Below are positions 7,517-56,792 of a stretch of DNA of 64,000 bases, one piece after another; position 1 is the first letter of the stretch; each line of letters starts with the position of its first letter. The stretch is from an uncultured bacterium (GTDB lineage: Bacteria; Fidelibacterota; Marinisomatia; Marinisomatales; UBA1611): positions 480,001 through 544,000 of the forward strand of contig CALSPG010000005.1 in NCBI GenBank assembly GCA_943788175.1, read 5' to 3'. A program made the position numbers and the translations under genes. The notes under the pieces are model-generated. The model saw only the letters and a program-made list of their open reading frames with translations. It was not told where the DNA came from and made no database searches.

Positions 7517-10171
7517 ATGAAAAAATTTATATTCCTCACACTCCTCTCAGGTTTCTTATTTAGTTCAAATGGTAAGCTAACTGGCACAATAACTCAAAAG
7601 TCTGATAATGCTCCTGCTGTAGGCGTCAATATAATGATTGCCGATACATATTTGGGTGCAGCTTCTGCACAGGATGGAAGATTTGTAATTTTAAACATCC
7701 CTCCAGGAACGTATTCTGTTAGGGTGGATGCTATCGGGTTTGCTCCAGTTGTTCTTCAAAATGTCAGGATTACGACATCTCAAACCACAGAAATCAATAT
7801 TAAACTCGATGAATCAGTTGTGGAAGGTCAAGAGGTCACTGTTGTTGCGGAAAGACCTTTAATTCAGAAAGACTTAACTGCTTCTCAACGGGTTACAACG
7901 GCTAAGGAAATTGCAGATATGCCGGTTGAATCTTTCCTTGGCGTTCTATCAACACATGCAGGTGTAAATAAAAGTGCTGATGGTGCTTTGCATGTCAGAG
8001 GTGGTAGAAGCAATGAAGTTGGGTATTATATCGGCGGTGTTTCTATGTCAAACCCGTTTTTCACAAACTCATTAGCAGTCGGTTTAAGTAATAAAGCTCT
8101 GGAAGAAATGAAGCTCGTTAGTGGCGCTTTCAATGCAGAATATGGGAACGCGATGAGTGGAGTTGTGAACGTAAAAGTAAAAGATGGTGGCAAAAAATAT
8201 CAAGGTAGTCTTTCTTATTATGCCGGTGATTATAATTCAAATGCAGAAGATATTTTTCCTAATATTTCCGATCAGTCTTTTACGGCAAATACCACCTTAG
8301 ATGCATTTGTGTCTGGACCGGTGATTCCAGGTTTAGGTGATAAATTAACGTTTAATATTTCTGTAAGGAGAAACCAAAGTGAAGGTTATCTTAATGGTAT
8401 AAGAGAACATTCTCCTGGTGATTTTGCTTATTTCCCGCCCAGTGGGAATTGGTATATCCAAATGACCGGTGATAGTAATTATGTTCCAATGAACCCTAGC
8501 GAGAGCAATAACTTTCTTTCAAAATTTACGTGGAGACTCTCACCGAGGATTAAAATATCTACTCAATCGATTATGTCTCAGTCTCAAAGTAAGAGCTATT
8601 CACATGCTTATAAATACAACCCTGAAGGCATAGCCACTGGCTACACACAAAATAATAACCATTCATTGCAAATCAATCATTCACTTTCTCCAAAAAGTTT
8701 CTATGAAGGCAATGTCTTCTTTAGTGATACTGATTATAAGAATTATTTATATGCAGATACATTAGATCAGCGGTACGTAAATACAGACTATATTAATACT
8801 GAGCCAACATCTGCTACTTTTTTATTTGGTGGTACGCAGATGGGGCATACATATAGAAACTCAAAATCTGTTGGCGGTAAGTTCGACTTCACGAGCCAAA
8901 TAAGCTCTAACCATGAAATAAAAACTGGGTTTAGTTTTAGAAATGATAATTTAGTTGAAAGAAACCTTACTGTGCTATTTGATCAAAATTTTGATGAACC
9001 AACTGTATTATCTGAGAATAAATCTCCTTATCACATTTTCTATGATAAAGATGCTGTTCAGTATTCAGCTTATATCCAAGATAAAATGGAATATAGCTCT
9101 ATGATAATGAACGCTGGTATTCGTTATGATGCCTTTGTTCCTAATGATTCAACTATTGCTAATTTGCTTTATCCCGAGGCAGACCAAAAAGAAGCGAAAA
9201 CAAAGACAATGGTCTCTCCCCGGGTTGGTGTCTCTTTACCTATAACGGAGAAAGGTATTTTCCACTTTTCTTATGGGCATTTTTATCAAATGCCAACTTT
9301 AAGGAATCTATATAGAGAAAGTTATTTTGGTGCAGGACTGGCACCAACGGTTGGAAATCCTGACCTCAAACCAGAAAAAACAGTTTTGTATGAATTTGGC
9401 TTTCAACAACAGTTCGGTAATCTAATTGGAATGGACTTTAATGTGTTTTATAAAGATATTCGCGAGCTTTTAGCTTTACAGAGTATTCGATATAATAGTC
9501 CGAACTATGGCCCTTCTAATTATTCAATATATTTAAACAAAGATTATGGAAGCGCAAGGGGCTTGACGCTATCTATTACTAAAAGGTATGACCCGGTGTC
9601 AAGAACGAGCTTATGGGTAGATTATACCTACCAGAAATCTGAAGGAAACTCTGTTAACTCTGGGTCTTTTTACTTTAGTGCGCTTAGTGGTACAGAGGAA
9701 GAGAAGCTTATTGTACCTTTATCATGGGATCAGTCTCATTTACTTAATACAACTTTGATTGTTGGAGACCCATCAAAAACGACACTTGGTATCATTGGAA
9801 AAATCTCAACTGGTTGGCCTTACACGCCATCCATTCCAAATGCAAACTTCATTCCTAAGCCAAATAGTGGCAGGAAACCTATTCAAAGAAATGTTGATGC
9901 AAAGTTAGAAACGAGAGTGTCAGTTAAAGGATATAGGGTTGCATTATTTGTCAGGGTATATAATTTATTTGATCTTCGTAATGAACGATATGTATTTGAT
10001 GATACTGGAACAGCAAAGTACACATATGAATATCGTAGTAATCAAGAGTCTGAGCAATTGATTGAAAATTATGGAATGCCTGGTCTTCATACATGGGAAG
10101 ATTATGTCACGAGGCCAAATTATTATTCTGCTCCTAGGTCTTTTAAAGTAGGATTAAGTCTGGATTTATAA
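7517..10171 (+). CDS. TonB-dependent receptor
   Basis: GKLTGTI N-terminal domain, HVRGGRSNEV and SGAFNAEYGNAMSGVVN plug motifs, SPRVG, GNPDLKPEKT, C-terminal beta-strand. Confidence 0.92.
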   Translation: MKKFIFLTLLSGFLFSSNGKLTGTITQKSDNAPAVGVNIMIADTYLGAASAQDGRFVILNIPPGTYSVRVDAIGFAPVVLQNVRITTSQTTEINIKLDESVVEGQEVTVVAERPLIQKDLTASQRVTTAKEIADMPVESFLGVLSTHAGVNKSADGALHVRGGRSNEVGYYIGGVSMSNPFFTNSLAVGLSNKALEEMKLVSGAFNAEYGNAMSGVVNVKVKDGGKKYQGSLSYYAGDYNSNAEDIFPNISDQSFTANTTLDAFVSGPVIPGLGDKLTFNISVRRNQSEGYLNGIREHSPGDFAYFPPSGNWYIQMTGDSNYVPMNPSESNNFLSKFTWRLSPRIKISTQSIMSQSQSKSYSHAYKYNPEGIATGYTQNNNHSLQINHSLSPKSFYEGNVFFSDTDYKNYLYADTLDQRYVNTDYINTEPTSATFLFGGTQMGHTYRNSKSVGGKFDFTSQISSNHEIKTGFSFRNDNLVERNLTVLFDQNFDEPTVLSENKSPYHIFYDKDAVQYSAYIQDKMEYSSMIMNAGIRYDAFVPNDSTIANLLYPEADQKEAKTKTMVSPRVGVSLPITEKGIFHFSYGHFYQMPTLRNLYRESYFGAGLAPTVGNPDLKPEKTVLYEFGFQQQFGNLIGMDFNVFYKDIRELLALQSIRYNSPNYGPSNYSIYLNKDYGSARGLTLSITKRYDPVSRTSLWVDYTYQKSEGNSVNSGSFYFSALSGTEEEKLIVPLSWDQSHLLNTTLIVGDPSKTTLGIIGKISTGWPYTPSIPNANFIPKPNSGRKPIQRNVDAKLETRVSVKGYRVALFVRVYNLFDLRNERYVFDDTGTAKYTYEYRSNQESEQLIENYGMPGLHTWEDYVTRPNYYSAPRSFKVGLSLDL

Positions 10172-10177
10172 AATAGT

Positions 10178-13100: not shown

Positions 13101-13546
13101 CAGATGCTCCAGTTTCACCTTCTTCAGGAGACATTTTTTCTATATTTACAACAAGGTCCTTTTCTGATGATAAATTTACATTCACTACTTCATCTGCAAA
13201 GGAAGATAAGGTGGTTGAAAAGGATAATATGGATGATATTTATGTAGTGCCTAATCCTTATGTTGTTTCGAGTAATATTGAACCTCTAGATCTTCAAAAC
13301 CCATTAGATAGAGGACCACGAAGAGTTTATTTCGCAAATATCCCAGCAAATTGTACAATCGATATTTATACAATGTCTGGTGAAATAGTAAAGTCTTTAA
13401 AACATGACAGTGCAATTGAAGATGGTATAAAATATTGGGATCTCACAACTTCAGATAATTTTCCTGTTTCATTTGGTATGTATATATATCATGTTAAGAG
13501 TGAAGATGGAAACGAATCGACAGGAAGGTTTGCAATCATTAAATAA
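10178..13546 (+). CDS. Giant secreted protein with FN3-like module and atypical CTD (VVPNPY...GRFAIIK)
   Basis: Signal peptide; DGIDNDNDGLLDE-type acidic repeats; VTLYWDDVAESS...DFEGYVIYRS module; CTD IYVVPNPY...FANIP...IYTMSG...YWDL...GMYIYHV; stop overlaps the next start (TAATG). Confidence 0.8.
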   Translation: MMRIIILITFCVGSLFSNLYGQWPFGKDIDWYIDGPKKNWTKRDHDRYYRWRDRLSASRKAETTDEQILPRQKAILNGNKITTEIWNYGSISSPGNRVTDIVWETLGYGYEFGPFICAKVPLLSDGHQDAFYEVSNGDTSWYARMISDGLTSLGGEVSPDGLEFYGWEPLAFNDDLTVPYGDPTSENIPTSNDLDRDGDGKPDSWPFGWYNPNLKDYVWPGALRQGASNSDLESFFVVDDRTNKEFDYYPFTSDSTKRGLGIEIESRYYQWANPLAEDIIFLIYKVTNKSDKDLEEVTFGMWGDPHVGGPSNWQDDLSYFDRDLNMVYCWDADGISDVSGKEPGYFGYKFLESPGQPYDGIDNDNDGLLDERQDNGIDEDGDWNVEKHDVGIDGIPNTGDEGEDDGVPTPGDQFDLRKPGEPNIDWTDLDESDMVGLTGFASPPFTSQNRISNDQFIFENYLTPGVFDSANSVQAGDYIFIYSSGPISLPKNESRRFSIALIVGQDYDDLTLNATTAQDIYEKNYQFAKPPEKPNVTAVPGDQKVTLYWDDVAESSFDPITETYDFEGYVIYRSTDPSFLDQQTITDANGSKFLFEPLKTVDGASAKFDLVNDYTGLSQIPYSGRGVSYNLGNNTGLRHVFVDSNNVVNGQKYYYAVVSYDHGDAALEVAPVECSKTITVNPETGEILLDVNTIAVVPRTMTAGYVASSITNNAPSQVQGNGTGLINLEIIDPSSIQDQNNFQIVFNEDDGLSYSVLDEKEVSDTLTARLGNYHKLSYKNIDSLSFKLIGSNGALLSSGVDYDLLDKDGQILIYADGAIAESEEITATFIYYPIVNSKKLSLEEGNPIFDGMTLSVQNQGLALEEQKIGWNASTLTNWEPTVKPFNNLGANKYPADYELRWFSDTVSSNYRPGYEYVKANFEIWETTRGFEQKQLPFVLIESAPFDSLWNPGERIIILQDSTMNSFSWELTFDTTDAPVSPSSGDIFSIFTTRSFSDDKFTFTTSSAKEDKVVEKDNMDDIYVVPNPYVVSSNIEPLDLQNPLDRGPRRVYFANIPANCTIDIYTMSGEIVKSLKHDSAIEDGIKYWDLTTSDNFPVSFGMYIYHVKSEDGNESTGRFAIIK

Positions 13547-14580
13547 TGCAATTTTATAAAAATATAGTATCCTTTCTAATAATTGCTTCTACTTTTAGTC
13601 TAGCTCAGCTAGAGAATAGCCAAGATATTTCTAAGGTCGGAACAACCGCTGCTCAATTTTTAAAAATCAGTGCAGGTTCTAGGGGTCTAGCAATGGGGAA
13701 TGCGAATGTTGCCATCGCAAATGATTTATCTAGCGGATTTTGGAATCCTGCTGGTTTAGCCCACTTAAAAGGCATTCAAGTATACTTTGAAAATAATGGC
13801 TGGTTAGCTGGCACCGATTATAATTTTGGCTCATTTGGTTTTGAATGGCCAAGAGTAGGCGTTTTTTCATTATCACTTACTATGCTGACGACACCAGATG
13901 ATTTAGTTAGGACTGTCGAAAACCCATCTGGTACGGGTGAAAAATTCAACTCACAAGATATGTCAATAGGCCTGAGTATTGGTAAAAAATTGACAGATGA
14001 CCTTTCATTAGGCGCGACAATTAAAAATATTAGACAGCGGATATGGCATTCTACTGGCCAAACAGTTGGTGTTGACATTGGCGTCCAGTATAATACACCT
14101 ATTAAAAACTTAATCCTTGGGGCGAGTATTGCAAACTTTGGCAATGATATCTCATTAACAGGTAGAGATATGAATTTAAGTGTTGACCCTGATCCGACAA
14201 ATCAAGGCAATATTGAATTCGTAAATGCACAGTATGAGACCGATGCTTTCCCATTACCGCTACTATTTAGAGTCGGACTAGGTGGCTACCTTGTTAAAAA
14301 AGAAAATTTAGATGTGCTCTTAGCTTTTGATGCTGTTCATCCAAATGATAATTATGAATATATAAACATTGGGTTTGAGACAAATATAAATAATATGTTT
14401 TCTATTCGTGCTGGTTATCCTAGCATTGGGAAAAAAGATGCAATCGAAGGCGCCTCCTTTGGTTTTGGTCTTAAATATCCAATCCTGAACTCTACGAATA
14501 ATTTTACAATTGATTATACATCAGCAGATTTTGGCCCTTTAGGGATAGTTCAAAGAGTATCCATTAGTTTTAATTACTAA
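13546..14580 (+). CDS. PorV/PorQ-family (UPF0164-like) outer-membrane beta-barrel
   Basis: SKVGTTAAQFLKISAGSRGLAMG...FWNPAGLA signature, LPLLFRVG motif, aromatic C-terminal strand. Confidence 0.88.
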   Translation: MQFYKNIVSFLIIASTFSLAQLENSQDISKVGTTAAQFLKISAGSRGLAMGNANVAIANDLSSGFWNPAGLAHLKGIQVYFENNGWLAGTDYNFGSFGFEWPRVGVFSLSLTMLTTPDDLVRTVENPSGTGEKFNSQDMSIGLSIGKKLTDDLSLGATIKNIRQRIWHSTGQTVGVDIGVQYNTPIKNLILGASIANFGNDISLTGRDMNLSVDPDPTNQGNIEFVNAQYETDAFPLPLLFRVGLGGYLVKKENLDVLLAFDAVHPNDNYEYINIGFETNINNMFSIRAGYPSIGKKDAIEGASFGFGLKYPILNSTNNFTIDYTSADFGPLGIVQRVSISFNY

Positions 14581-14609: not shown

Positions 14610-15890
14610 ATGAATAGAGCGTTTTTTTTAGTTTCTTTTGTATTATTGCCTTCACTGATTTTTTCTCAGCTTGATGATGTTGGAGTCACGCTCCAAGTTG
14701 ACCCTCCTTTTTCATCTCGTGATAGTCTAGACTATTTTATTATAGAAGGCGAATCTCCATTATTTGAAAGAGATATCGAAGGCGCAGCACTTAATATTTA
14801 TGGTGATGAAATTGAAGAAGTCATTTTTAAAATATTTCAAGATGGCGAGGACTCCCTCCAAATTTTTGGTAGGATATTTAATCAACCGAGTGATGAAAAC
14901 ACAATTGGAACATTTTTAAAAGAAATAAAAGATTCACCAATTTATTTTTCATATAAAATATTAGCAAAAAGTAGAATACAATTAAAGTCGATTATCATTT
15001 TCCCCATAGATATAGAACTACCGGGATTAGCAAAAGGGCTAGGAGCTATATCTGGAACAGTTCCAAAACCTGCAATAATTAGCAGAGAAGAATGGGGCGC
15101 AGAGGACTCGAAATCATCTTACAGCTATCATCCTTATTTTGACAAACTCACTCTTCACCACGCAGCTTGCTGCAGTGCAGATGATATAGAAGAAGGAAAA
15201 GATCAGGTTTATTGGATTCAAGACTTTCATCAAAATGGAAGAGGGTGGAATGATATTGGGTACCATTTTCTTGTAGATAGAGGAGGCAACATATACCAAG
15301 GTCGTCCTGAGACTGTTATCGGTGCTCATGTGGGGGGAGCAAATACGGGTAATATTGGTGTCTGTCTACTGGGTTGTTACCATCCTCCAGAGGTATCTTG
15401 TTTGCAAGAGATAACGAATGAAAGTAGAGAAGCGATAGTAAAACTTTTTTCTTGGATCTCAGACACATATGGACAAGATCCGTCTTTGTTATTAGGTCAC
15501 CGTGATTATTTTGGTACAACGGCTTGTCCAGGTGATAATGTATCGATAGATCTTCCGAGGTTTAGAGCTGAAATATTTGATTTCACACAATCCTACTTTG
15601 AGATACCGCCTATTTCAATCTTTAAATCACCTTACCCAAATCCATTTTTTAATTCGATTTCTTTTAATTTCGATTTAATAGACCAAATGGATTTCAGAAT
15701 GAATATTTATGATATTCTAGGAAGAAAAGTTAATATGATTGAACGGAATAATGCAGCTTCTGGAAGATTGACTCTTTTTTGGGATGGTAAAGATTTTGAT
15801 GGCAAAAAATTAGGTTCAGGTATCTATATTGCAAAACTGGCTTCTTTTAATGATGTTGAGCCTTTAAAAGTTGTTTTATTAAAAAAATAG
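14610..15890 (+). CDS. Secreted N-acetylmuramoyl-L-alanine amidase (Amidase_2/PGRP-like) with T9SS-like CTD
   Basis: IISREEWGA, LHH, GWNDIGYHFLV, GAHVGGAN, GHRD...TACPG Zn ligands; C-terminal PYPNPF...WDGKD...GSGIY. Confidence 0.88.
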   Translation: MNRAFFLVSFVLLPSLIFSQLDDVGVTLQVDPPFSSRDSLDYFIIEGESPLFERDIEGAALNIYGDEIEEVIFKIFQDGEDSLQIFGRIFNQPSDENTIGTFLKEIKDSPIYFSYKILAKSRIQLKSIIIFPIDIELPGLAKGLGAISGTVPKPAIISREEWGAEDSKSSYSYHPYFDKLTLHHAACCSADDIEEGKDQVYWIQDFHQNGRGWNDIGYHFLVDRGGNIYQGRPETVIGAHVGGANTGNIGVCLLGCYHPPEVSCLQEITNESREAIVKLFSWISDTYGQDPSLLLGHRDYFGTTACPGDNVSIDLPRFRAEIFDFTQSYFEIPPISIFKSPYPNPFFNSISFNFDLIDQMDFRMNIYDILGRKVNMIERNNAASGRLTLFWDGKDFDGKKLGSGIYIAKLASFNDVEPLKVVLLKK

Positions 15891-44851: not shown

Positions 44852-47800
44852 TTATTAGACTTATATTATTAGCTTTTATCTATTTTTCTGGTTTTGTTAT
44901 TGCTGGGACAGACGGAACTATTCGAGGTAAAGTTTCTGATGAGGACTCGATGGAGTTGCCGGGGGCGACTATTTATCTTCCTGGTTTGGGCGTTGGTGCA
45001 GCCGCTGATGTAAATGGTAATTTTATTATTCTAAATATACCAGTTGGTAAGTACGATGTCGTCGTTCAAATGGTGGGTTATCAAAAGAAAACATATAAAG
45101 AAGTTCATGTTGTGATGGATCAAACGGTTTGGCTAAATCCAACTTTGCCAGTCGCGGCCGTTGAGGGTGACGAGGTAGAAGTTTTAGGCACGAGGCCTTT
45201 GGTGGAGAGAGGCAGTACCTCGAAAAAAATCACGGTGGATAAAGAAGCCATTCAGTCTTTGCCTATTCGAGATATGTCTGAGCTATATTCTCTTCAATCG
45301 GGTGTTGTAAAAGTTGAGAGTAAAACTAGGGGCATTCCTAACCAGGAGGAAAGAGGCCTTGAAGAAGTTCACGTTCGAGGTGGTAGGTCTGGAGAAATCG
45401 CTTACATGATTGATGGTATGTATATAAGAAATCCAATTTTTGGTGGTATTGGTTCTGGCACAAGGTTGAACCTATTTGCAATTAATGAATTTGATTGGCA
45501 ACCAGGCGGTTTCAATGCAGAATATGGTGATGCAATGTCTGCGGTTTCAAATTGGCACACCTCATCTGGTGGCGAAAACATTGAATACCATTTTGAATAC
45601 GAGACTAGTTTGGTTGGTGCTTTTTTGAATGAGCTTCGTGGTAAAACAAAAGATACTGAAAACTTTGATAAGCTAAGGGGTTTGAATGATTACAATTTTG
45701 GTATTGGTGGTCCAGTATTGGGGATCCCGAAATTAAGGTTTTGGTTCAGTGGCCAACATACAACAGAAGAAAACTATAGTGTGTATGAATTTGATGACCG
45801 TGTTTATTTAGGTGAAGACCAAGATCTACTACTGGATACCTTAGCATTAAACAAAGCTAATTTAGTAAATCCTTGGGATAATATATCAGGTTTTAGAGGG
45901 TTTGGTTTTGATAAGACTACGGATATTTTTACAAAATTAAGTTATAAATACTCTGGTAAATTAAGATTTCACCTAAGTTATTGGAGAGTTGCAAACCATT
46001 TGCAAGCTTTTAATGCTAGATATCTTTATTGGGATGAGGGTAGAAATGAATTGTTTCGTGATACGTATAGGGTGAATTTTGAAATAAATCACTCTCTGAC
46101 CCCAAAAACTTTTTATACAGTTCGTTTTGCTCGTTTCATTCAAGATCAGTTTCAGGGGGTTCGCTGGAGAGACAATGACAACGATGGTTTCCCGAATTGG
46201 TTTGAATGGCGGCATGCAGCTGGGAACAAAGATATTTCAGATCCAGAAAATTCTAATGTGGTCCCTTACAGAATTGGCGAGGATGGAGATACGGTTAGAT
46301 ACACTAATAGAGATGATATAAGCGGTTGGCATGTAGGTGCAACTCCAGGCATGTGGAATTGGGAGTCTGCAGAAAAATTCGACGATTCTAATGGTAATGG
46401 CGTCTGGGATGTGGGTGAGAGCTTTACGGATTGGGATAACGATGGCTCTTGGGATGGCCCAGAACTAGTTAAAGAGCTAGAATATAGAGACGATAGTTAT
46501 TGGCTTGAGCCTGAGATGTATGAAGATTATGAGCCATTTTTAGATTATAATAGTATTAGATTGCAATTTGAAAATATTCCAGGGAACTCCAGAGCGCCTG
46601 TTAATACGCCTTGGGATCCTGAAAACATTTATTATTACATGCCAACGCCACAAGGTGATGTTTGGGAAGAAGGAAGAGCTTTTGGTGGGCACGATAATTT
46701 TTATGCAGATTCCAGAGCTGTCACTGATGAGGTCCGAATCGATCTTACTTCTCAAATATCTGATAAATGGAAAGCGCGTTGGGGGTTCGACTATAAATAT
46801 CATAGACTGAATTTTTATGAAATTATTAGTCCTTGGCTTGGTCAAGCAGCTTCTAGGCAAACTTTTGCAGAGTATTGGCAAGATACTGGACCAGATGGAT
46901 TATTACCTATTGATAGCGGCTACGTTAACCCAGATATAGGTGAAAACAATGGTAAGTGGGATGAGGGAGAAGACTATTCTGACTCAAATGAAAATGGTAG
47001 ATGGGATAACTACAGAGAACCAGAAGAGTTTTCAGCTTACATGCAAAATACTTTTGAGGTTCCATGGATGGTTATTAATTATGGTATACGCATAGATGCC
47101 GTAAACTATAATACTCAAATATGGGCCGATACTTCAGGAAAGTATACTCCGGGTACGCCATGGTATTTTTCTGATTTGAATGATAATGATGTATGGGACA
47201 GTAATGAAGAAGTAAGTACCTTGGCAGGGTTGCCAAGACAAAAAGTGATACTTAAAAGTGCAGATTGGTTCTATAAGATAAGTCCGCGAATAGGTTTCAG
47301 TCATGTTATCACAGATAAGTCGACATTTACTTTTAATTATGGTCTTTATTATCAAACTCCAAAATATCAGAATATCTATTTAAATACGAATAGGATGGAA
47401 GACCCTGAAGAACTGTTTGAAGAAGGTAATGGTGAGGTTGGTAACGCAACGATGAATGCACAAAGAACCCAGTCTTACTCAGCTGGTTTTAACGTGCAAG
47501 TTGGGCAAAATTGGTCTTATTCTCTAATGACTTGGGTGAAAAACATGGATCAGTTAACTAAAAATACGTTCCAGCGTTCTGGTGTTTATTCTTATAATAT
47601 TAGTGAAAATGGAGATTATGGTAGTGCAAAGGGTATAGATTTAACATTGAAGTTTAGAGGTCGTGCATTTGGATCGCAGTTGCAGTATACGTATTCGATA
47701 GCAAAGAATAACAGTGAATACCCTTGGGCAAATGTTAGTGGTCAATATGTAGATGCTCCGAGTCAAGAGTCATTGCAGTTTTACGATAGGCCTCATGATC

Positions 47801-48225
47801 TAACATTCTGGTTTTATACTGGGTTGCCATTCGGTATCAATGCAGCTGTAACTGCCTTTTACCAAAGTGGGGGTCCTTATACTCCTTATATATTCGCAGG
47901 AAAAGACCCGAAACCTGATGAGAGGAATATAAACACTAATAGAGGGCCTGCTTTTAAAAATGCAAATTTAAATTTTAGTAAATATGTTTCCATTATGAAT
48001 CATAGGGTAAGTCTTGGTTTGAGTGTCTATAATTTTTTAGATATAAGAAACGAAGTAGATGTCTGGCCACTGACTGGCAAAGCTGATGACCCCGGCGCCT
48101 ACTATACAGATAGGGTTGGGTTGGCTGATTCAGAGCACTATTTATCCAGCGCATATTATGATCGTCCTTGGCGCTCTTCTCAGCCTAGAGAAGTTAATTT
48201 CAATGTGAGGTTTGATTTTGATTGA
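44848..48225 (+). CDS. TonB-dependent receptor with large acidic loop insertions
   Basis: GTIRGKV N-terminal domain, HVRGGRSGE, GGFNAEYGDAMS, SPRIGFSH; same subfamily motifs as 7517-10171. Confidence 0.9.
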   Translation: MIIRLILLAFIYFSGFVIAGTDGTIRGKVSDEDSMELPGATIYLPGLGVGAAADVNGNFIILNIPVGKYDVVVQMVGYQKKTYKEVHVVMDQTVWLNPTLPVAAVEGDEVEVLGTRPLVERGSTSKKITVDKEAIQSLPIRDMSELYSLQSGVVKVESKTRGIPNQEERGLEEVHVRGGRSGEIAYMIDGMYIRNPIFGGIGSGTRLNLFAINEFDWQPGGFNAEYGDAMSAVSNWHTSSGGENIEYHFEYETSLVGAFLNELRGKTKDTENFDKLRGLNDYNFGIGGPVLGIPKLRFWFSGQHTTEENYSVYEFDDRVYLGEDQDLLLDTLALNKANLVNPWDNISGFRGFGFDKTTDIFTKLSYKYSGKLRFHLSYWRVANHLQAFNARYLYWDEGRNELFRDTYRVNFEINHSLTPKTFYTVRFARFIQDQFQGVRWRDNDNDGFPNWFEWRHAAGNKDISDPENSNVVPYRIGEDGDTVRYTNRDDISGWHVGATPGMWNWESAEKFDDSNGNGVWDVGESFTDWDNDGSWDGPELVKELEYRDDSYWLEPEMYEDYEPFLDYNSIRLQFENIPGNSRAPVNTPWDPENIYYYMPTPQGDVWEEGRAFGGHDNFYADSRAVTDEVRIDLTSQISDKWKARWGFDYKYHRLNFYEIISPWLGQAASRQTFAEYWQDTGPDGLLPIDSGYVNPDIGENNGKWDEGEDYSDSNENGRWDNYREPEEFSAYMQNTFEVPWMVINYGIRIDAVNYNTQIWADTSGKYTPGTPWYFSDLNDNDVWDSNEEVSTLAGLPRQKVILKSADWFYKISPRIGFSHVITDKSTFTFNYGLYYQTPKYQNIYLNTNRMEDPEELFEEGNGEVGNATMNAQRTQSYSAGFNVQVGQNWSYSLMTWVKNMDQLTKNTFQRSGVYSYNISENGDYGSAKGIDLTLKFRGRAFGSQLQYTYSIAKNNSEYPWANVSGQYVDAPSQESLQFYDRPHDLTFWFYTGLPFGINAAVTAFYQSGGPYTPYIFAGKDPKPDERNINTNRGPAFKNANLNFSKYVSIMNHRVSLGLSVYNFLDIRNEVDVWPLTGKADDPGAYYTDRVGLADSEHYLSSAYYDRPWRSSQPREVNFNVRFDFD

Positions 48226-51200
48226 TGTTTTCAAGAAAAATATGTTTTTAATTACTCTTTTTATTTTCGCATCTTTGGTTGTCGCCGGGTCTGAAAAATA
48301 TGAGCGTGATCAAGTGGTGGACCCATATCGAAATAGTGCTGCTGCGCGTATAGGAGATCACCCTTTTCCGACAAATCCAATGAATGACAGGGCTATTGGT
48401 TATTTATTGCAAGGAAAAGTCAATAATGGAATATCAAATTATGGCAATCTAATTAATTGGGACGAGCAACCTGCTGGTTTATGGGGAGATTATTCATATT
48501 TGCCCTCTGTCGCTTTCTTAGCAGGCCTTCCAGGGCATAAAAAGACATCTGCGTTTCAATGGTCTCAGCTCGAGTCAGTCGTTGATTCCGAAGGCAATGT
48601 GATTTATAGTATTTGGGAATCCCAAGGTGCCTACGAATCGTGGTACGCAAATGGAGATACTAATTATGTAGGTATCCTTTTTAATGCAGAAGATGATTTC
48701 GGTAAGTGGGATCCGGATAGTATATCAAAAAAATCATCCATAGATGATCTAACGGATGCCTACCAGTGGGTTGAGGATACAAGATAATAGTAGCATAATT
48801 ATAAGCACTCTTGGTGAAAATGATCCAAACAGTTCTTCCGCTAGAATCGGATTCATTCATCCTTGGGCTTTAAGGCCTAAACTGAAAAGTCGTGAAGACC
48901 AATTTGATTTATATGACTATGGCAGTGACCAAGAAGAGTGGACTAAAGATGATAACTTGTTTTACTATGGTGCTACAGCTTCAGAATCATGGTTTACCAG
49001 GAACGACCCTTCATTCAATACTGATTGGCACGCCAGTACAATGTCTAGGACAAATACGCACAACCTAGACGTGACCGCCGGTGATTTATTTGGTGATACC
49101 TATGTGACAGATAGTGAGGACACATATCCTCTTTTAGCTCATAGTGATTATTCAAGTACTTGGCCAACGAGATTCAACACGTAACAGCGACCAATGAGTC
49201 CTTCTGGCCTGGGTCTTGGAGTCAAGATTACAATACGTTTTTACCGGGCTGTGATAACTCAAGAAAAGATCCCGATTGCTGGGAGGAAGTCCCGGGTCGT
49301 TTTGTGTCAGATATGGATGTGTATATGGAATTTGACGATAGGTGGGCGCATCGTGGGAATGTAGTTAATACAAATAATGAGTACGAAACAACCGGTTACC
49401 CCATGGGTCTAAAGGTTATGGCGACTGCTCATTCTTATGGCGTCTCTTATGCCGAAGATATTATGTTTGTTACTGTCAAGGTTCGAAATGAAAGTGGTGA
49501 TTGGTGCGCTAAGGATGAATATGGCGTCCCTGTACTGGATAGTGAGGGAAATCAAATTTGTGGGGAGGGTATGATTATGCCCGATGGAACCAAGTTGAAT
49601 CGTGGAAAAGGTTTTGATTACAAGGATATGTCGTTGGGTTTTTATATGGATGCAGATGTATTGATGGGCGATAAAGGAGGTTATAATTCTGGACTCCATA
49701 CTAATGATGACGATTTTATGAAATATTATTATGAGTTTTTTGAATTAAATGATGAAAGATTATCGGTTAGTCTTGCAATGATTGGTGATTATGATGGGTT
49801 GTCTGGTCTTCCTGGTTATGCTATGGATCCTGATAGTCCTAGCCCTGGTAATAGTTACGGCGTTGTTGCTACTCAAATGTTAGATTCTCCTCGAGCTACT
49901 ACAGAAATAGATTTAGATCAGGATGGGACTACGGATATTTTTCCAGGCGAGCCTTTAAAAATGACTGATTGGCACTGGTTTGATTGGTATAGTAGACCGG
50001 GTGTTACGCAGGCAGAAGGTAATTCGAGTGGTTGTAATGCTGGGTCTCCTGGATGTCCTCAAGCTAGAAATAAAGAAGAAATTCTTTATAAAATAATGAC
50101 AGGCGACACTACAAATTTAATGCCGGATGAGCATGAATGGTATTTTCATACGCCTAATCCAGGTACAGATCTAGGTTCAGAGCTTAATCCTCATTTTGAT
50201 TCATTAGAGGGTCTGAAAGAAGAACCTGCTTTTTTAAGAGAGCCTGATGGTTTGGATTGTGTGTTGATTCTAAGTTGTGGTCCTTTTGATTTACCTGTCG
50301 GAAGAGAAGTTCCATTTTCTTTTTGCATCATCTTTGGTCAAAACGAAGAAGACTTAATTAATAACGCTAAATTTGCTCAAGTTATGTACAACTCTCGTTA
50401 TCAGGGTTTTACACCGCCAACGAGACCAACGGTTCATGCTGTTACAGAGCAGGGGAAAGTAAAGCTATATTGGAATGACCATGCAGAATCATCTACTGAT
50501 GTAGTTACTGGATATGCTGACTTTGAAGGTTATAAAATTTATAAAAGTATTGATGGCGGAGAATCTTGGGGAAAGCCAAGCGATATGATTTACGATGCAG
50601 ATGGTATTTTTGTTGGATGGCAACCTTATTCTCAATATGATTTATCTGCTGAAGAAGATTCTCTTCACTGTACTTACTCAAATAGTTTCGATTGTGATGA
50701 AAAAAATTCTCGTGGGCACGCAATAAAAGGGCAAGACCCCTATTCTCCTTGGTTTAACCTTGGTTCTGATACTGGTTTCGACTTAATCCGTTTAGACGAG
50801 CCTTATGTCGTTGATGGAGATAGTTTTCAATACGTTTTTGAGGACGATGATGTTGTGGACGGTCTTGAGTACACTTACTCAATAGTAGCATATGACATGG
50901 GCGTCGAGCCTCCTTATAAGACAGTTTATGAACCTATAGGGAATGGTCAATTCAATGCAGTTGTTGATACGAACTATTCAAACCCCGATCAGTGGGCAAG
51001 TCCTGAGGGCTACACATATATTGAAAATTCTAGGGGAACTACAATTTTAGATAGAAATTTTGTTCAAGTCTACCCTGGTGTTCAGCCTCAGGCAAGCTTA
51101 AAGAACGTTGGCGTGGTTCCTAATCCTTATATAGTCAGGTCTGGTCACAACGAAACCACTTTTAATAGAAAAATTAAGTTTAACAATCTCCCTTCACAAT

Positions 51201-51388
51201 GTATGATTAGTATTTATACAGTAACAGGTGAGTTAGTATCTGAATTTGAGCATCAAAGCATAACTAATGGTTATGCATGGTGGGATATGCGAACGGTAAA
51301 TAATCAAGAAGTTGCTCCGGGTTTGTATGTTTTTCACATCAAGGGTGCAGGTGAAGAGAAGGTTGGAAAATTTGCGGTGATACGATGA
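48212..51388 (+). CDS. Giant secreted protein with FN3-like module and atypical CTD (VVPNPY...GKFAVIR); two frameshifts (about 48780 and 49180)
   Basis: Three overlapping ORFs (48212-48787, 48756-49184, 49160-51388) together are colinear with the 10178-13546 protein (NYG; DIMFVTVKVRNES; SCGPFDL; DFEGYKIYKS). Confidence 0.75.
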
Positions 51389-52403
51389 GTAAGTTTTTTG
51401 CACTTTTCTTTGTTACTGTCTCTCTTTCTGTTGGCCAGTTTCGTGATATTCCAGAGGTCGTGACAAAGGTAGCGACATCAACGGCTAATTGGTTAAAATT
51501 AGAAACATCTGCTCGTGCAATTGGCATGGGTGGATCGCATGTTGCTTCTGGAAGAGGTATCGCTGGTATTCCTTACAATCCTGCTAGTGCAGCATTTATT
51601 GAACGTAGCGAAGCTTATTTTTCAAGTGTGAACTACATCGCTGGTATTCAGCATGGTGTACTTAGTTATGGTAAGAAGGTTGGACCTTCTGATTTTGTTG
51701 GTCTTCATTTATTTTACTTAGATAGTGGCCCGATGGCTGTAACGAACGAATATTATCCCGATGGTACTGGAGAGGATTTTAGAGTTGTTTCTACTGCTTT
51801 TAGAACAACGTATGCTCGCAAGATGACAGATCGATTAAAAGTAGGTGGTTCATTAAACTATATTCGAGATGTGATTTATGAAGCTGATATGCAAGCTCTG
51901 GCGTTTGATATTGGTTCTAATTTTGACACCGGTATCTACGGAGTTATGCTTGGAATGAGCATTGCAAATTTTGGTCCTGAAGTACAATACAATGGTGAGA
52001 GTTTACATATTACTGTTCCAGATACTATTGATGTTGATGAGCGCGTGAGTAAGATAACAACGAAGTTTCCACTGCCACTAGTATTTAGGCTTGGCATTGA
52101 AAATGAAGTTGTTGGCTCCGAATAGTGTCTTTGTAAAACATCCTCAGCATAGCTTGAAGATTAGCATCGATGGCATCAAGCCAAATGATTATACTGTTTA
52201 CGGGACGATGGGCATGGAGTATAGTTGGCAAAATCTTGCTTTCGCTCGTTTGGGTAGTCACTTAGGTCATGATACGGCGGGGTTAAGTGCAGGGGCTGGG
52301 TTAAGGCTAAGGCTTGGTAAGATGGTAGCCGTTGTAGATTATGCTTTTGTGGATTATGACTTATTAAAAACAACACATCAAGTCTCTATGGGGATTGAGT
52401 TTT
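51350..52403 (+). repeat. Direct repeat copy 1 (about 1.05 kb; cargo tail plus PorV-family gene)
   Basis: Near-identical to 55738-56790; by eye, 5 synonymous substitutions and one extra C (52118-52119). Confidence 0.95.
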
Positions 52404-52405
52404 GA
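51385..52405 (+). CDS. PorV/PorQ-family beta-barrel, copy 1 (+1 frameshift at 52118-52119)
   Basis: TKVATSTANWLKLETSARAIGMG...YNPAS; gives the same protein as 55773-56792 once the extra C is removed. Confidence 0.88.
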
Positions 52406-55400
52406 TAAAGGTCCTTTCTTTTGTAGTTTTATATTCTTTTTTAGTTCTCAGCTTTACAGTCAGCAATGTGTCTCAAATGCGGGCATAGATAAAACTGTAT
52501 GCGGTGGCAAGAAAGTAGGAAGTAATTACAGAGTTTATTTAGATGGTTCTGATTCTTATATTTTGAATGGATCTATTAATTATGAATGGTCATCTCTGGA
52601 TGATGGTATCTCTTTTTCAAGCAGTCAATCAAGAAGAGCAGAACCCTATTTTAATTATCCTCAGGACCTCGATCAGGATAAGGAGTTTAGAATAGAATTA
52701 AGAGTTTATGAAGACGATGAGGCATGTGAAAGCGTCGACACGGTACTTGTTGTTTGCAAGGCAAATATGTGTCCTATTCCTGATGTGGGAGAAGATTTTA
52801 AAGTCAGTAGCGGTTGCGATTTAACAGTTTCACTTGATGCGTCTGGCTCTGTTGACCCGGATGATTCTAATATTAATTATTCTTGGTCTTCTTTAAATGG
52901 CCTTGATGCAAACTTGCAAAATAGTAATTCTTCTGTAGCTACTTTTAACTTTCCGATGATATCCTCCGAAGCAAGTTTACAGTTTTGCTGTTGCTTTGGA
53001 TGATGGTGAAAATTTTGTATCTGACACGTTAGCGGTTACTTATTTAAAAAATTCCTCGCCGGTAGCTGATGCGGGTGCAGATTTTACTACATGTGATTAC
53101 CAATTTAAGTTGACATCAAAAAAATCATATGATAAAGATTGGAATTCTCTTTCTTATTCATGGTCACTAATTAATGGTGACTTAGTAATGGAAGGTGAAT
53201 CAATGCCGGAAATTTTGGTTACATCTCCTTTGGACTTAGAACAAAATACAGACTTTCATTTTGAGCTTGCAATCACTGAAACTATTGCAGGTGAACAGTA
53301 TTGCACTGATAAGGATACTGTGGTCGTTACGATTAGAAAAAATATTTGCCCAATTGCTGATGCTGGTGGAAATATTCGAGTTCCTAAATTTGATAACAAT
53401 CCGGTTGTTTTGAGTGCTGTTAATTCATTAGATCCTGATGGAGAAGGTCTTATTTTTTCGTGGACGGGTGACAATGGAGAGGTCATTAACGATGTTGAGG
53501 TTATTGTCAATGATCCAAATCCAGACTCTTTATATTCAAAATATAATTATAAGCTAAGTGTCACAGATAGTGAAGGTTCATTTTCAATCGATAGTGTTTC
53601 AGTTATTTTTGGCAATTTTTCTAAACCTAATGCGCCAAAGATTTTTGCAGTTGCTGACCACAAGAGAGTTCTTGTCTCGTGGGATGCTAGTGCTGAAACT
53701 TCTATTGACTCATTAACTGGATATGCTGACTTTGAGGGCTACAAGTTATATCGTTCAATTGATGGTGGTGTAACTTGGGGAGGGAATGAGGATAAGTTAT
53801 ATGATTTTGATGGCAATTTTATCGGTTGGATTCCCTATGCCCAATTTGATTTAGATTATGAACAAGATATAAACCACTGTATTTATACCAGTGCAGATTG
53901 TGATAGTGATGAGCCAAAAAGGAATGTTTCAATATCTGGTTTAGATCCCTTTGCACCTAGGTATAGCCTGGGTGTTAATTCTGGTATTCAATATGCGTAT
54001 GTTGATTCGAATGTTGTTGACGGTATTGAGTACACGTATACCATTTGTGCTTATGATATTGGATTAGAGCCTTTTGAAATGGCTTATATATTAAATGACT
54101 CAACTCAAACTTATGATTCCGATACGGTTTGGGCTGGAACAAATCCGGATAAATTTATGGGTCCAGAAATGCTTAATTACTATAATATTAATGGTGGTTT
54201 CATTCGGTCTACTCCAAATCCAAACCGTGGCTATCCATATCTTGAAACTGATAAGGGTTCTTCTCCGCTCGACAATAATTTTATTACTGTAGTCCCCGGT
54301 TACACACCAAGTAATATTTCTTTTCCAGATGAGAGTGATATCGAGGCAATTTTCTTATCTGATTCTAATAATATAGGTACAGGTGAAAGAGGATATTTTA
54401 TAGTAGATAGAGGTGAAATATCAGCAGGGAAAATTTTAAAATATGAAATAAAAGCTAACCAAGGTATGGATGCTATTGATGGCATTGCTACTGAGGACCC
54501 AATGCTTTATGTTTTTGAAGTTCTAAATGATGGTTCTCCAAAATATTCTAATTCATACGATCCCCAGACTTTAACTTTCTTTGAAAATGATTCGCTTGAA
54601 AGATTGCCAGGGTCAATTCTTGAATCTTCAAATCTTGTTGTTCCTGAATTTCAATTAATCCAACCTTTAGATCGATGGAGCGATATGATGGATGGTATCC
54701 GCTTTAGATTTGATAATGCGCTTCCATTAAGCCCTTCTGCTCCTCCGATCCTAGAACCTTCAAAATATTTGCTTTACAATGCTGACGAGTCTGAATTTGA
54801 CTCTTTACAATTTGCTCAGTGGATTTATGTTGATAATATTGAAATTGAGTTATCATATACAAATTTAGCTAGCTATATGCGCAGGTTGAATTTTGATTAC
54901 GAAATAGAGTTTTTTTCAGAGGCAATAGGTGATTCAGTGTTCGTTGGGTATGGTATGATGGGTCTTCCTTTTAGAATTACAAATTTATATACAGGTAAAA
55001 AAGTTGGGGTTACTTGTTTTGATTTGGGTACAAATAATAATCCGTCTGAGGGCTCTGAAAACGGTGTTGGAGATTTAAGTTGGACTAAAGGTGAAGAAAT
55101 TGCCTTCATTGGTGACACTGTATCCATTGCTGGGCAAGAGCTTTCAAAATATAATTTCAATTTAAAAATTAATTATCGAATCAGGACTGGGGAGCAGTTT
55201 AGTAAGGCATGGTCTCCAGCTATAGAATATTCAGAAAATGATACTGTGTTTTTTAATCAAATGTTTTGGATTACATCTGCAATATCAAAAAACATTGAAC
55301 CCTCGACTCCATACATTGATGAGAATAACGATGGAGTTAATGATAATTCATGGAAACCAATTTATCCTTGGAAAAATGGTGACAAACTTATTTACGGTCC

Positions 55401-55776
55401 TTCAAAGTTTTTTGAAGACGGAGATAATTGGGTTTCAGATATGAGTGTACTCGGAAAAGTATCAACTGTCGCTGATACCACATTAGATACAATTAAAGTC
55501 GTACCAAACCCATATATCGTAAGGTCTCGATTTAATGAGACTGCGATATCTAGAAAATTAAGATTCACAAACTTACCTCAAGAATGCAGAATTAGAATTT
55601 ATACGGTCACTGGAGAATTAATAAGGGTCTTGGACCATGTAAATCAGTTTGATGGTAATGAGTGGTGGGATTTAAGAACTGCAAATAACCAAGAAGTTGC
55701 TCCAGGATTGTACATTTATCATGTTGAGAGTACAAATGGTGAAGAGAAGGTTGGAAAATTTGCGGTGATACGATGA
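52395..55776 (+). CDS. Giant secreted protein: PKD/Ig-like repeats, FN3-like module, atypical CTD (frameshift at about 52983-52986)
   Basis: P.ADAG.D...LDASGS.DPD...YSW repeats; VLVSWDASAETS...DFEGYKLYRS; IKVVPNPY...GKFAVIR. Removing one T joins 52395-53003 to 52996-55776. Confidence 0.78.
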
Positions 55777-56790
55777 GTAAGTTTTTTGCACTTTTCTTTG
55801 TTACTGTCTCTCTTTCTGTTGGCCAGTTTCGTGATATTCCAGAGGTCGTGACAAAGGTAGCGACATCAACGGCTAATTGGTTAAAATTAGAAACATCTGC
55901 TCGTGCAATTGGCATGGGTGGATCGCATGTTGCTTCTGGAAGAGGTATCGCTGGTATTCCTTACAATCCTGCTAGTGCAGCATTTATTGAACGTAGCGAA
56001 GCTTATTTTTCAAGTGTGAACTACATCGCTGGTATTCAGCATGGTGTACTTAGTTATGGTAAGAAGGTTGGACCTTCTGATTTTGTTGGTCTTCATTTAT
56101 TTTACTTAGATAGTGGCCCGATGGCTGTAACGAACGAATATTATCCCGATGGTACTGGAGAGGATTTTAGAGTTGTTTCCACTGCTTTTAGAACAACGTA
56201 TGCTCGCAAGATGACAGATCGATTAAAAGTAGGTGGTTCATTAAACTATATTCGAGATGTGATTTATGAAGCTGATATGCAAGCTCTGGCGTTTGATATT
56301 GGTTCTAATTTTGACACCGGTATCTACGGAGTTATGCTTGGAATGAGCATTGCAAATTTTGGTCCTGAAGTACAATACAATGGTGAGAGTTTACATATTA
56401 CTGTTCCAGATACTATTGATGTTGATGAGCGCGTGAGTAAGATAACAACGAAGTTTCCACTGCCACTAGTATTTAGGCTTGGCATTGAAAATGAAGTTGT
56501 TGGCTCGAATAGTGTCTTTGTAAAACATCCTCAGCATAGCTTGAAGATTAGCATCGATGGCATCAAGCCAAATGATTATACTGTTTATGGTACAATGGGC
56601 ATGGAGTATAGTTGGCAAAATCTTGCTTTCGCTCGTTTGGGTAGTCATTTAGGTCATGATACGGCGGGGTTAAGTGCAGGGGCTGGGTTAAGGCTAAGGC
56701 TTGGTAAGATGGTAGCCGTTGTAGATTATGCTTTTGTGGATTATGACTTATTAAAAACAACACATCAAGTCTCTATGGGGATTGAGTTTT
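55738..56790 (+). repeat. Direct repeat copy 2
   Basis: Near-identical to 51350-52403. Confidence 0.95.
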
Positions 56791-56792
56791 AA
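55773..56792 (+). CDS. PorV/PorQ-family beta-barrel, copy 2 (intact)
   Basis: WLKLETSARAIGMG, YNPAS, FPLPLVFRLG, VDYAF, terminal Phe; ATGA overlap with the upstream gene. Confidence 0.9.
   Translation: MSKFFALFFVTVSLSVGQFRDIPEVVTKVATSTANWLKLETSARAIGMGGSHVASGRGIAGIPYNPASAAFIERSEAYFSSVNYIAGIQHGVLSYGKKVGPSDFVGLHLFYLDSGPMAVTNEYYPDGTGEDFRVVSTAFRTTYARKMTDRLKVGGSLNYIRDVIYEADMQALAFDIGSNFDTGIYGVMLGMSIANFGPEVQYNGESLHITVPDTIDVDERVSKITTKFPLPLVFRLGIENEVVGSNSVFVKHPQHSLKISIDGIKPNDYTVYGTMGMEYSWQNLAFARLGSHLGHDTAGLSAGAGLRLRLGKMVAVVDYAFVDYDLLKTTHQVSMGIEF

Follow-up and report, generated by a model that had tools for sequence, protein, structure and literature searches.

Two loci in a 64,000-nucleotide stretch of DNA (G000:C5:480001-544000, in the following called the window) from an uncultured bacterium of the Fidelibacterota carry a recurrent gene trio. 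It consists of the genes for a TonB-dependent receptor (TBDR), for a large secreted protein (the giant) and for a β-barrel of the PorV/PorQ family (the barrel). The giant ends in an atypical C-terminal domain (CTD) related to those of the T9SS (type IX secretion system). The genome comprises 2.27 Mb with 33% G+C and an estimated completeness of 92%. The genes of both loci and of their neighbourhood are listed in Table 1.

In locus 1 (module 1), the stop codon of the giant gene and the start codon of the barrel gene overlap in TAATG. Locus 2 has one TBDR gene, followed by two giant-barrel pairs. In both pairs, giant and barrel genes overlap in ATGA (at 51385 and 55773). This layout and the overlaps were described in a first-pass annotation of the window and are borne out by the listing of open reading frames (ORFs). 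Tandem modules (giant, barrel, TBDR, giant, barrel) or a second TBDR gene downstream are frequent in related loci (L058 2-10163, L061 1-9441, L066, L052 and L071). Two giant-barrel pairs behind one TBDR gene, as in locus 2, are therefore not unusual.

Table 1. Genes and domains of the two loci and of their surroundings. Positions refer to the window.
Feature	Position	Strand	Domains and scores
FG-GAP repeat protein with type-A CTD, upstream of module 1 (accessory)	3697-7443	+	Pfam FG-GAP_3 109.7 bits, Por_Secre_tail 29.2, TIGR04183 27.5
Module 1 TBDR, 884 residues; CarboxypepD_reg N-terminal domain, Plug and β-barrel	7517-10171	+	Pfam Plug 31.3 bits, TonB_dep_Rec barrel 79.4
Module 1 giant, 1122 residues	10178-13546	+	Signal peptide, supersandwich (residues ~67-530), FN3 and β-sandwich, PorZ-type CTD
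Atypical CTD (PorZ/PorU-like) at the end of the module 1 giant	13214-13543	+	Alignment A2, TIGR04183 23.7 bits, PorZ model C-terminus 20.1
Module 1 barrel, 344 residues, PorV/PorQ family	13546-14580	+	NF033709 180.3 bits
Secreted N-acetylmuramoyl-L-alanine amidase with type-A CTD	14610-15890	+	Amidase_2 59.5 bits, TIGR04183 25.7
NamZ exo-β-N-acetylmuramidase	16588-17838	-	NamZ_N 243.9 bits
GH18 enzyme with type-A CTD	17835-20270	-	Glyco_hydro_18 122.5 bits, Por_Secre_tail
Putative lipoprotein, 733 residues, no assigned family	42650-44851	+	Cys23 followed by acidic residues; weak sub-threshold DUF3108-like match
Module 2 TBDR, 1125 residues, large insert	44848-48225	+	CarbopepD_reg_2 and Plug (27.5 bits)
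Module 2 giant with atypical CTD, three frames in the window	48212-51388	+	CTD: PorZ model 28.6 bits
Barrel copy 1 of module 2, in two frames because of one inserted base	51385-52405	+	NF033709 119.7 bits (first piece)
Second giant of locus 2; PKD, FN3 and atypical CTD, two frames in the window	52395-55776	+	K319L-like_PKD matches, PorZ model 28.1 bits
Module 2 barrel copy 2, intact, 339 residues	55773-56792	+	NF033709 153.1 bits
Three proteins past locus 2: 764 residues without family; InhA-like MAM domain; Peptidase_M43 / FG-GAP (runs off the window end)	56886-63998	+	Type-A CTD on the first two

Linkage of receptor, giant and barrel

A hidden Markov model (HMM) of the three atypical tails of the window (10178, 48212 and 52395) was run on all ORFs of the genome. 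The scores are bimodal. Five proteins reach 59.8-195.5 bits and the rest have at most 34.9 bits. A barrel gene directly follows each of the five high-scoring proteins (5/5) but none of the other proteins with a C-terminally located CTD (0/33; 38 ORFs, genome-wide). Chance as the cause of the CTD-barrel pairing is excluded genome-wide.

Besides the pairs of the window, one giant-barrel pair is located on G000:C7 (L001) and another one earlier on contig C5 (L002). Both have a TBDR gene directly upstream. In total, five giant-barrel pairs are distributed over four TBDR-headed loci (modules 1-4) of the genome. Each of the four module TBDRs has its best genomic matches among the other three (100-468 bits). 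The TBDR ranking next, among approximately 22 matches to the Plug domain, scores at most 87 bits. Judged by sequence, the four module TBDRs form a private subfamily. In pairwise BLAST comparisons, modules 1 and 3 are closest in every part (TBDR 32%, giant 32%, barrel 34%) and module 4 is the most distant one in all three. This co-divergence of the three parts indicates that the module was duplicated as a unit.

Inspection of GTDB species genomes yielded at least 546 stretches encoding a relative of the giant, of which the best 80 loci were analysed. These originate from Neomarinimicrobiota, Rhodothermales, Ignavibacteriales/Melioribacteraceae, Kryptoniota, Calditrichota and KSB1. They are the top scorers to one paralogue group, and the following figures describe that group and its near kin. 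ORFs were called in the 80 loci and scored with HMMs derived from the barrels, TBDRs and CTDs of the genome described here. Loci were testable for the barrel if the 3' end of the giant gene was complete and followed by at least 900 nt, and for the TBDR if at least 900 nt were present upstream.

The barrel gene adjoins the stop codon of the giant gene in 72 of 74 testable loci (70 within 88 nt, 17 with a 4-nt overlap; exceptions L080 and L085). A TBDR gene is positioned directly upstream in 65 of 66 testable loci. In the exception, L080, TBDR and barrel genes lie further upstream. The atypical CTD is found with at least 40 bits at 73 of 75 complete 3' ends. The exceptions are L021, a split gene with the CTD on the second piece, and L085. 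The first-pass annotation had claimed that the atypical CTD is directly followed by a PorV/PorQ-family gene and that a TBDR of the same subfamily lies directly upstream of the giant. It had proposed to follow this linkage through the Fibrobacterota-Chlorobiota-Bacteroidota (FCB) group. Both claims hold for the genome as well as across phyla.

Distribution of the family

The closest relatives of the 1122-residue giant with a named source are proteins of Candidatus Marinimicrobia / Neomarinimicrobiota. In the ESM Atlas, its family is labelled Fidelibacterota and the clusters there are all annotated as 'hypothetical protein'. A 90%-identity collection contains 2120 relatives at E ≤ 0.001, and those with a name are all annotated as 'hypothetical' or as 'predicted secreted'. 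The giant shares ~58-60% identity with proteins labelled KSB1 and Calditrichaeota. A 50%-identity representative library gave 3900 matches with E ≤ 0.001; 1829 of them remain with a threshold of 1e-10 and 548 with one of 1e-30. Conservation is strongest in a core at query residues ~355-750 of the giant. One orthologue group, present in Neomarinimicrobiota and Rhodothermales loci, shares 46-60% identity with the module 1 giant.

In a sample of the phylum, a match to the family at E ≤ 1e-20 is present in 149 of 151 genomes, in 95 of the 96 high-quality genomes and in all 61 genera. The matches per phylum genome range from 1 to 11 and do not represent copy numbers. In marine metagenomes, 20 runs (14 studies; six RNA libraries among the runs) have contigs with the 8.9-kb stretch of locus 2. 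In run X15, an RNA library, the contigs extend over both giants and barrel copy 2. DNA can occur in such libraries, and the contigs are weak evidence for transcription of locus 2.

The atypical C-terminal domain

Two kinds of CTD are present in the window. Six proteins (216, 3697, 14610, 17835 on the minus strand, 56886 and 59334) match Por_Secre_tail or TIGR04183, the type-A models, and none of the six is followed by a barrel gene. The three atypical tails align with one another. Family models and mutual alignment agree with the first-pass annotation, which had distinguished six canonical and three atypical CTDs.

Searched as whole proteins against TIGR04183, the three atypical-CTD proteins reach 17.3, 17.0 and 18.8 bits, under the cut-off of 23. 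Better matches were obtained for two of the tails with the C-termini of the PorZ and PorU models (28.6 and 21.7 bits for 48212; 28.1 and 18.6 bits for 52395). For a broader comparison, 78 tails of 110 residues each were aligned, five from the genome and 73 from the related loci (alignment A2). The C-terminus of the PorZ model is matched by 67 of these CTDs, that of PorU by 47 and TIGR04183 by 30 (E ≤ 0.01). The type-B models TIGR04131 and CHU_C (PF13585) match one and seven of the 78, and Pfam Por_Secre_tail (PF18962) matches five.

When the A2 profile is compared with the PDB, only PorZ (5m11, E 8.3e-5) and PorU (6za2, E 0.0046) are found at E ≤ 0.01. Three further entries up to an E of 1 are unrelated proteins (E 0.2-0.74). 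The alignment with PorZ extends to a common terminal ...FAVIR. The CTD in the AlphaFold2 (AF2) model of the module 1 giant is a seven-stranded immunoglobulin (Ig)-like β-sandwich with its strands between residues 1022 and 1120. It superposes on the CTD of PorZ (5m11_A) with a Z-score of 12.7 and an r.m.s. deviation of 2.0 Å for 90 residues with 23% identity.

From these profiles and the model, the atypical CTD is best described as a divergent type-A-like Ig domain, nearest to the CTDs of PorZ and PorU, and not as a wholly new class. The first-pass annotation had suggested a further CTD class. This suggestion needs to be corrected, as the domain does not have equal rank with types A and B; the isolated CTD of module 1 is borderline (23.7 bits, cut-off 23) and TIGR04183 matches 30 of the 78 CTDs. 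The HMM of the three tails, also proposed there, separates the family in the genome, and all of its top five proteins are paired with a barrel. By analogy with PorZ and PorU, the atypical CTD is predicted not to be removed by PorU after export.

Barrel, giant and receptor

The two intact barrels of the window exceed the cut-off of NF033709 (90 bits), and all 74 barrels from the window and the related loci match this family at E ≤ 0.001. Both intact barrels remain under the equivalog cut-offs of PorV (NF033710, cut-off 250; 61.9 and 52.1 bits) and PorQ (NF033711, cut-off 220; 82.8 and 78.5 bits). Other barrel models give one match to PorP/SprF and 33 weak matches to BamG (best E 6.3e-9) among the 74. 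In the PDB, the profile of the barrel family finds PorV of F. johnsoniae (6h3i_F, E 1.4e-28).

The AF2 model of the module 1 barrel has 14 long strands and a mean predicted local distance difference test score (pLDDT) of 92.7. According to Foldseek, the most similar structure is PorV (8gl6_F, E 4.8e-15, template modelling score (TM) 0.70/0.66; 6h3i_F, TM 0.67). FadL, TodX and TbuX have a TM of ~0.5 and BamG of ~0.45 (range 0.45-0.57).

For the bodies of the giants, Pfam and NCBIfam contain no family, and no catalytic family was found with them. The AF2 model of the module 1 giant (pLDDT 84.4, predicted TM 0.76) consists of an N-terminal helix, a supersandwich, FN3 and β-sandwich domains and the CTD. 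The supersandwich is interrupted by an acidic stretch with the invariant residues D362, D364, D366, D389, G391, D393 and G394, which may form calcium sites. Foldseek with the whole chain gives weak matches only (TM 0.1-0.2). Superposition of the supersandwich alone with VIA-align reveals dextran dextrinase (9ju0; Z 20.1, r.m.s. deviation 2.9 Å, 254 aligned residues), the glucoamylase 1lf6 of glycoside hydrolase family 15 (GH15; Z 18.7), GH94 phosphorylases (Z 17-18.7) and 4zle (Z 18.4). The matches to these enzymes cover their N-terminal non-catalytic domains only; no catalytic domain is matched. The supersandwich is of the galactose-mutarotase type and resembles the N-terminal domains with which GH15, GH94 and GH65 enzymes bind sugars. 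It is also similar to aldose epimerases, polysaccharide lyases, amine oxidases and the periplasmic domain of YidC. Read by eye, the giants begin with signal peptides in which the cleavage region has no lipobox cysteine.

A Plug domain in 7517 and 44848 and a TonB_dep_Rec barrel in 7517 characterize the TBDRs as TonB-dependent transporters. The SusC model TIGR04056 (cut-off 368) reaches 41.7 bits on 44848, confined to the N-terminal domain, and does not match 7517. Going by these scores, the module TBDRs have a SusC-like N-terminal domain and are placed outside the SusC family.

Reading frames of locus 2

In the window, three frames are needed to read the giant gene at 48212 (48212-48787, 48756-49184 and 49160-51388) and two to read the one at 52395 (52395-53003 and 52996-55776). 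These splits, as well as that of the barrel gene at 51385, were overlooked in the first-pass annotation. Public contigs of four runs (three DNA, one RNA) from three studies were aligned to positions 48000-56900. Within the giant gene at 48212, they have a 1-base deletion at 48780/48783 and a 1-base insertion at 49179/49180. Within the one at 52395, they have a 1-base deletion at 52972 and a 2-base deletion at 52413. The indels coincide with the frame changes and account for the covering depth completely or almost completely. The frame arithmetic is consistent (2 to 0 to 2 for 48212; 0 to 1 for 52395). Both giants are intact in the populations behind the public contigs. Since independent contigs carry compensating indels at the frame junctions, the breaks are either assembly errors or private to the strain; probably they are assembly errors.

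A decaying pseudogene cluster was considered for locus 2 and rejected for the two giants, given compensating indels at every junction and a clpX gene that is split too. This clpX (window 41344-42511) extends over two frames, with an AAA domain in 41344-41886 and AAA_2 and ClpB_D2-small in 41708-42511. Together with the indels at 48780, 49179, 52413 and 52972, the split clpX suggests that single-base indel errors occur at a noticeable rate in the assembly. For barrel copy 1, run X1 is the only one that covers the break.

Barrel copies 1 and 2 are 97.5% identical over 1140 nt with two gaps, and copy 1 has one extra base. The repeat (window 51350-52406 and 55738-56793) has its start within the final strand of the CTD encoded just before the barrel (...GEEKVGKFAVIR codons), and over the first 300 nt the identity is 100%. 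For the remainder of the two giants of locus 2, the protein identity is only 39-61%. Set against the divergent giants, the near-identical repeat points to a recent duplication or gene conversion that moved the barrel and the tip of the CTD together.

Secretion components and SusD in the genome

T9SS components are present elsewhere in the genome. SprA (TIGR04189, 455.7 bits), PorU (583.6 bits) and a PorV candidate (family model, 242 bits) were found. In addition to the 38 ORFs with CTD-like tails recognized by the three-tail HMM, there are approximately 50 C-terminal matches to the PorU model. The first-pass annotation had recommended a search for T9SS parts, which was successful for sprA and porU. 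For the motor components, the GldM and GldK models gave nothing above cut-off, as detailed below.

The PorV candidate (L003 9439-10836) has 465 residues and reaches 242 bits with NF033709 and 183 bits with the PorV model. Directly after it comes a 'T9SS-dependent M6-like inactivated metalloprotease' (NF052323, 318 bits, partial; both genes within L003 9439-13001, equal to G000:C9:29438-33000), and porU is not in front of it. The porU gene is located on another contig (G000:C6:20813-24025). Just downstream of sprA on G000:C7 (L004 6099-10010), a protein of 701 residues, whose tail matches the PorZ/PorU models, is followed by tandem PorV/PorQ-family barrels of 323 and 292 residues. By its matches, this group is a candidate PorZ-PorQ pair with the same layout.

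The two Pfam models of SusD (PF07980 and PF14322) have no match in the genome, which is estimated to be 92% complete. This agrees with the statement of the first-pass annotation that no SusD accompanies the two loci.

Neighbouring genes and possible substrates

Spot checks with Pfam confirmed the names of the neighbours. An amidase gene directly follows the barrel gene in 14 of 60 testable loci (two Neomarinimicrobiota, eleven Rhodothermales-type and one Melioribacteraceae). NamZ adjoins the module also in L010 and L047. A Kryptonium locus encodes a GH3/β-lactamase fusion and a BadF/BcrA-type ATPase. In more distant loci, the module is flanked by other genes, such as GH94 in L078. FG-GAP relatives are present in 31 of the 80 loci and are directly upstream of the TBDR gene in 21 of 45 testable ones.

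The neighbours of module 1 are a secreted amidase, NamZ and a GH18 enzyme. Because of these, the group of module 1 possibly imports peptidoglycan-derived material (glycans or muropeptides), an assignment that is tentative and held at somewhat less than an even chance. Downstream of locus 2, the proteins with an InhA-like MAM domain and Peptidase_M43 give hints that this locus handles proteinaceous material. The paralogous modules would serve different substrates.

The putative lipoprotein in front of locus 2 continues after Cys23 with EEPKNDEDSD, which resembles the surface-export signal of Bacteroidota. The stop codon of its gene overlaps the start codon of the TBDR gene at 44848. This 733-residue protein was considered as a conserved fourth component and rejected, as it is not homologous to the 732-residue protein upstream of module 3.

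The span from 15.9 to 42.6 kb, which the first-pass annotation had included in its coordinates, contains unrelated housekeeping genes. Between the two loci (window 24740-29552) there is an SOS mutagenesis cassette with a LexA-like repressor, a Y-family polymerase (IMS) and an error-prone DnaE2-type Pol III α subunit.

Proposed function and alternatives

The following model is proposed for the trio. The module would comprise three co-transcribed genes, for the TBDR, for a non-lipidated, all-β secreted protein of ~1,100 residues and for a 14-stranded PorV/PorQ-family barrel. The giant would cross the outer membrane via SprA, the translocon of the T9SS. There, the private barrel would collect the CTD instead of the general PorV. 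The CTD would not be cleaved by PorU and would be docked on the extracellular loops of the barrel, like PorZ on PorQ. In this way the barrel would keep the giant at the surface next to the TBDR, and the giant would capture substrate for import. By analogy, it would take a lid role in place of SusD and would be the counterpart of SusD and of the lipoprotein lids of Bacteroidia. Since the CTD resembles those of PorZ and PorU, the principle of anchoring would be the known one of PorZ-PorQ and PorU-PorV, reused for proteins that are not part of the machinery. The likeness of the CTDs and the gene pairing are observed in the data; retention of the CTD, its binding by the barrel, contact of the giant with the TBDR and the substrates are what we infer. 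As a whole, uptake of a PorZ-type CTD by the private barrel at SprA, retention of the CTD and anchoring of the giant beside the TBDR for substrate capture are given slightly better than an even chance.

Several points weigh against this model or narrow it. The isolated 110-residue CTD of 10178 just exceeds the cut-off of TIGR04183, so that the general PorV may handle it and cleavage may follow. The supersandwich does not prove sugar binding, as its fold is common to YidC and amine oxidases. For more distant members of the family, the linkage was measured only through the five pairs of the genome itself. The link to the amidase is limited to 14 of 60 loci. The putative lipoprotein at 42650-44851 could itself be a lid or an extra surface partner of the TBDR at 44848. 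Finally, GldM/PorM (TIGR03517, PF12081) has no match in the genome and GldK (TIGR03525) reaches 42.9 bits, below its cut-off; with controls that were not informative, these results do not speak for the absence of the components. In this phylum, the motor and ring of the T9SS may be too divergent for the models, or different.

The giant may be anchored as proposed and yet act without contact to the TBDR, either as a surface enzyme of an unrecognized glycan- or peptide-cleaving family or as a general adhesin. The supersandwich is mostly found inside carbohydrate-active enzymes, and there are many further invariant acidic residues (D240, D316, D331, E421, D428, E431 and D433). Furthermore, the identity across phyla is high (~58-60% to the records named KSB1 and Calditrichaeota) and the giant is far larger than known lids. 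However, only non-catalytic N-terminal domains of enzymes align with the supersandwich, and neither Pfam nor NCBIfam assigns a catalytic family. The near-obligate TBDR of a private subfamily (65 of 66 loci) argues for a joint function of receptor and giant. An enzyme or adhesin of this kind is thus regarded as unlikely.

A second alternative separates the giant from the barrel. The giant would be an ordinary T9SS cargo, handled by the general PorV and cleaved by PorU, and the barrel would be a FadL-type channel for a small hydrophobic or amphipathic product without any role in anchoring the CTD. The barrels indeed have a FadL fold, the genome encodes a general PorV and PorU, and the TIGR04183 matches (the isolated module 1 CTD and 30 of 78 CTDs) would fit ordinary cargo. 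On the other hand, every one of the 74 barrels scores with the PorV/PorQ family and the closest fold is PorV (TM 0.70 compared with ~0.5 for FadL). The barrel gene goes specifically with the CTD gene, as illustrated by the two pairs behind one TBDR in locus 2 and by the tandem pairs in L058 and L061. The repeat common to both barrel copies even starts inside the last strand of the CTD. In addition, the similarity of the CTD points to PorZ and PorU, the CTDs of which are both uncleaved. A FadL-type channel is therefore considered quite unlikely.

A machine for outer-membrane biogenesis or an accessory of the T9SS (a paralogue of the attachment complex or a BamG/BamH-like assembly) in place of a nutrient system is very unlikely: the near-universal presence of the family in the phylum (149 of 151 genomes), the weak BamG matches of 33 of 74 barrels and the FadL-like BamG that grips a surface protein by its loops (accessible text of PMC12578637) would fit it, but the genome has four loci with different neighbouring hydrolases at each, phylum genomes have 1-11 matches (not copy numbers), the TBDRs have Plug domains, the PorV-family scores of the barrels are far above their BamG scores and a separate candidate PorZ-like/PorQ-like pair lies beside sprA.

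Significance and comparison with known systems

Marinimicrobia and their relatives in the FCB group are abundant and degrade organic matter of the sea and of sediments. Most of them are uncultured and have no SusD, and the trio would bear on how their many TBDRs capture polymers. The family described here is nearly universal in the sampled genomes of the phylum, and the named members among its matches are 'hypothetical'.

Extended to the FCB phyla outside Bacteroidia (Marinimicrobia/Fidelibacterota, Rhodothermales, Ignavibacteriota, Kryptoniota, Calditrichota and KSB1), the model would mean that their main nutrient-capture machines are a TBDR together with a T9SS giant held on a PorQ-like barrel via its uncleaved CTD. 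This would be a third route of T9SS cargo sorting and a SusD-independent counterpart of the utilisome, and one orthologue group would be a peptidoglycan scavenger in abundant ocean bacteria. Such a generalization is possible, with the balance leaning somewhat against it. If the proposed mechanism is correct, a TBDR, a protein with a PorZ-type CTD and a private barrel form a genomic marker for uptake loci outside Bacteroidia. The neighbourhood of module 1 would then point to peptidoglycan uptake and to a link to carbon and nitrogen cycling.

Literature searches, with most subscription papers and supplements outside their scope, did not yield a published description of the trio. The single principles (retained CTDs, private carriers of type-B cargo, SusD and lipoprotein lids) are known. 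Their combination is probably undescribed.

The Bacteroidota barrel assembly machinery (BAM) contains BamG-BamH, in which a surface protein is gripped by the extracellular loops of a FadL-like barrel with 14 strands, according to the accessible text of PMC12578637. In contrast to the giant, BamH is a lipoprotein without a CTD, and BamG binds BamA. The barrels of the modules are closer to PorV in score as well as in fold.

Lids on TonB-dependent transporters are formed by SusD and by other lipoproteins, such as BtuG and the DUF families of Price et al. (accessible part of 10.1101/2023.03.17.533168). The modules resemble these systems in a transporter with a SusC-like N-terminal domain beside a partner, which here would likewise be at the surface, in secreted hydrolases and in paralogous sets. 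They differ from SusC/SusD in a partner that is not SusD and has no lipobox and in a TBDR outside TIGR04056. The T9SS route and the anchoring by a barrel, which are proposed here, would be further differences. The text of that preprint, as far as accessible, does not mention T9SS, PorV or FadL.

In type-B cargo systems of Flavobacterium johnsoniae (SprB-SprF and Fjoh_3952-Fjoh_3951), the carrier barrel is encoded just downstream of the cargo, stoichiometric production has been proposed and the carrier retains the cargo at the surface (accessible text of PMC12618676). A private barrel gene immediately downstream of the cargo gene is common to the type-B cargo with PorP/SprF and to the modules. 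The type of CTD (TIGR04131 1/78, CHU_C 7/78) and the family of the barrel (PorP/SprF 1/74), however, are different.

In profile and fold of the CTD, the closest systems are PorZ-PorQ and PorU-PorV in the attachment complex of the Porphyromonas gingivalis T9SS. There, PorU retains its CTD on PorV and PorZ on PorQ, and the cognate PorV-like barrels were proposed to shield the CTD from cleavage (PMC10202324, in its accessible part). The modules share with them a type-A-like CTD and the NCBIfam family of the barrel. The CTD is kept in the attachment complex and would be kept in the modules as well. The bodies of the proteins, on the other hand, are unrelated. PorZ has β-propellers and PorU a C25 peptidase domain, and only the C-terminal ~100 residues of the giants match the corresponding models NF052228 and NF033707. 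Moreover, the barrels of the modules remain under the equivalog cut-offs, and their genes are overlapping neighbours of the giant genes, present several times per genome and tied to a TBDR. As the pairs are overlapping, multiplied and tied to a TBDR, they most likely serve cargo and not the secretion machine. In the accessible text of PMC12618676, PorV is the partner that recognizes every type-A CTD. If the model is correct, this statement needs to be amended, the modules being an exception in addition to PorZ, and the principle of PorZ-PorQ extends to ordinary cargo.

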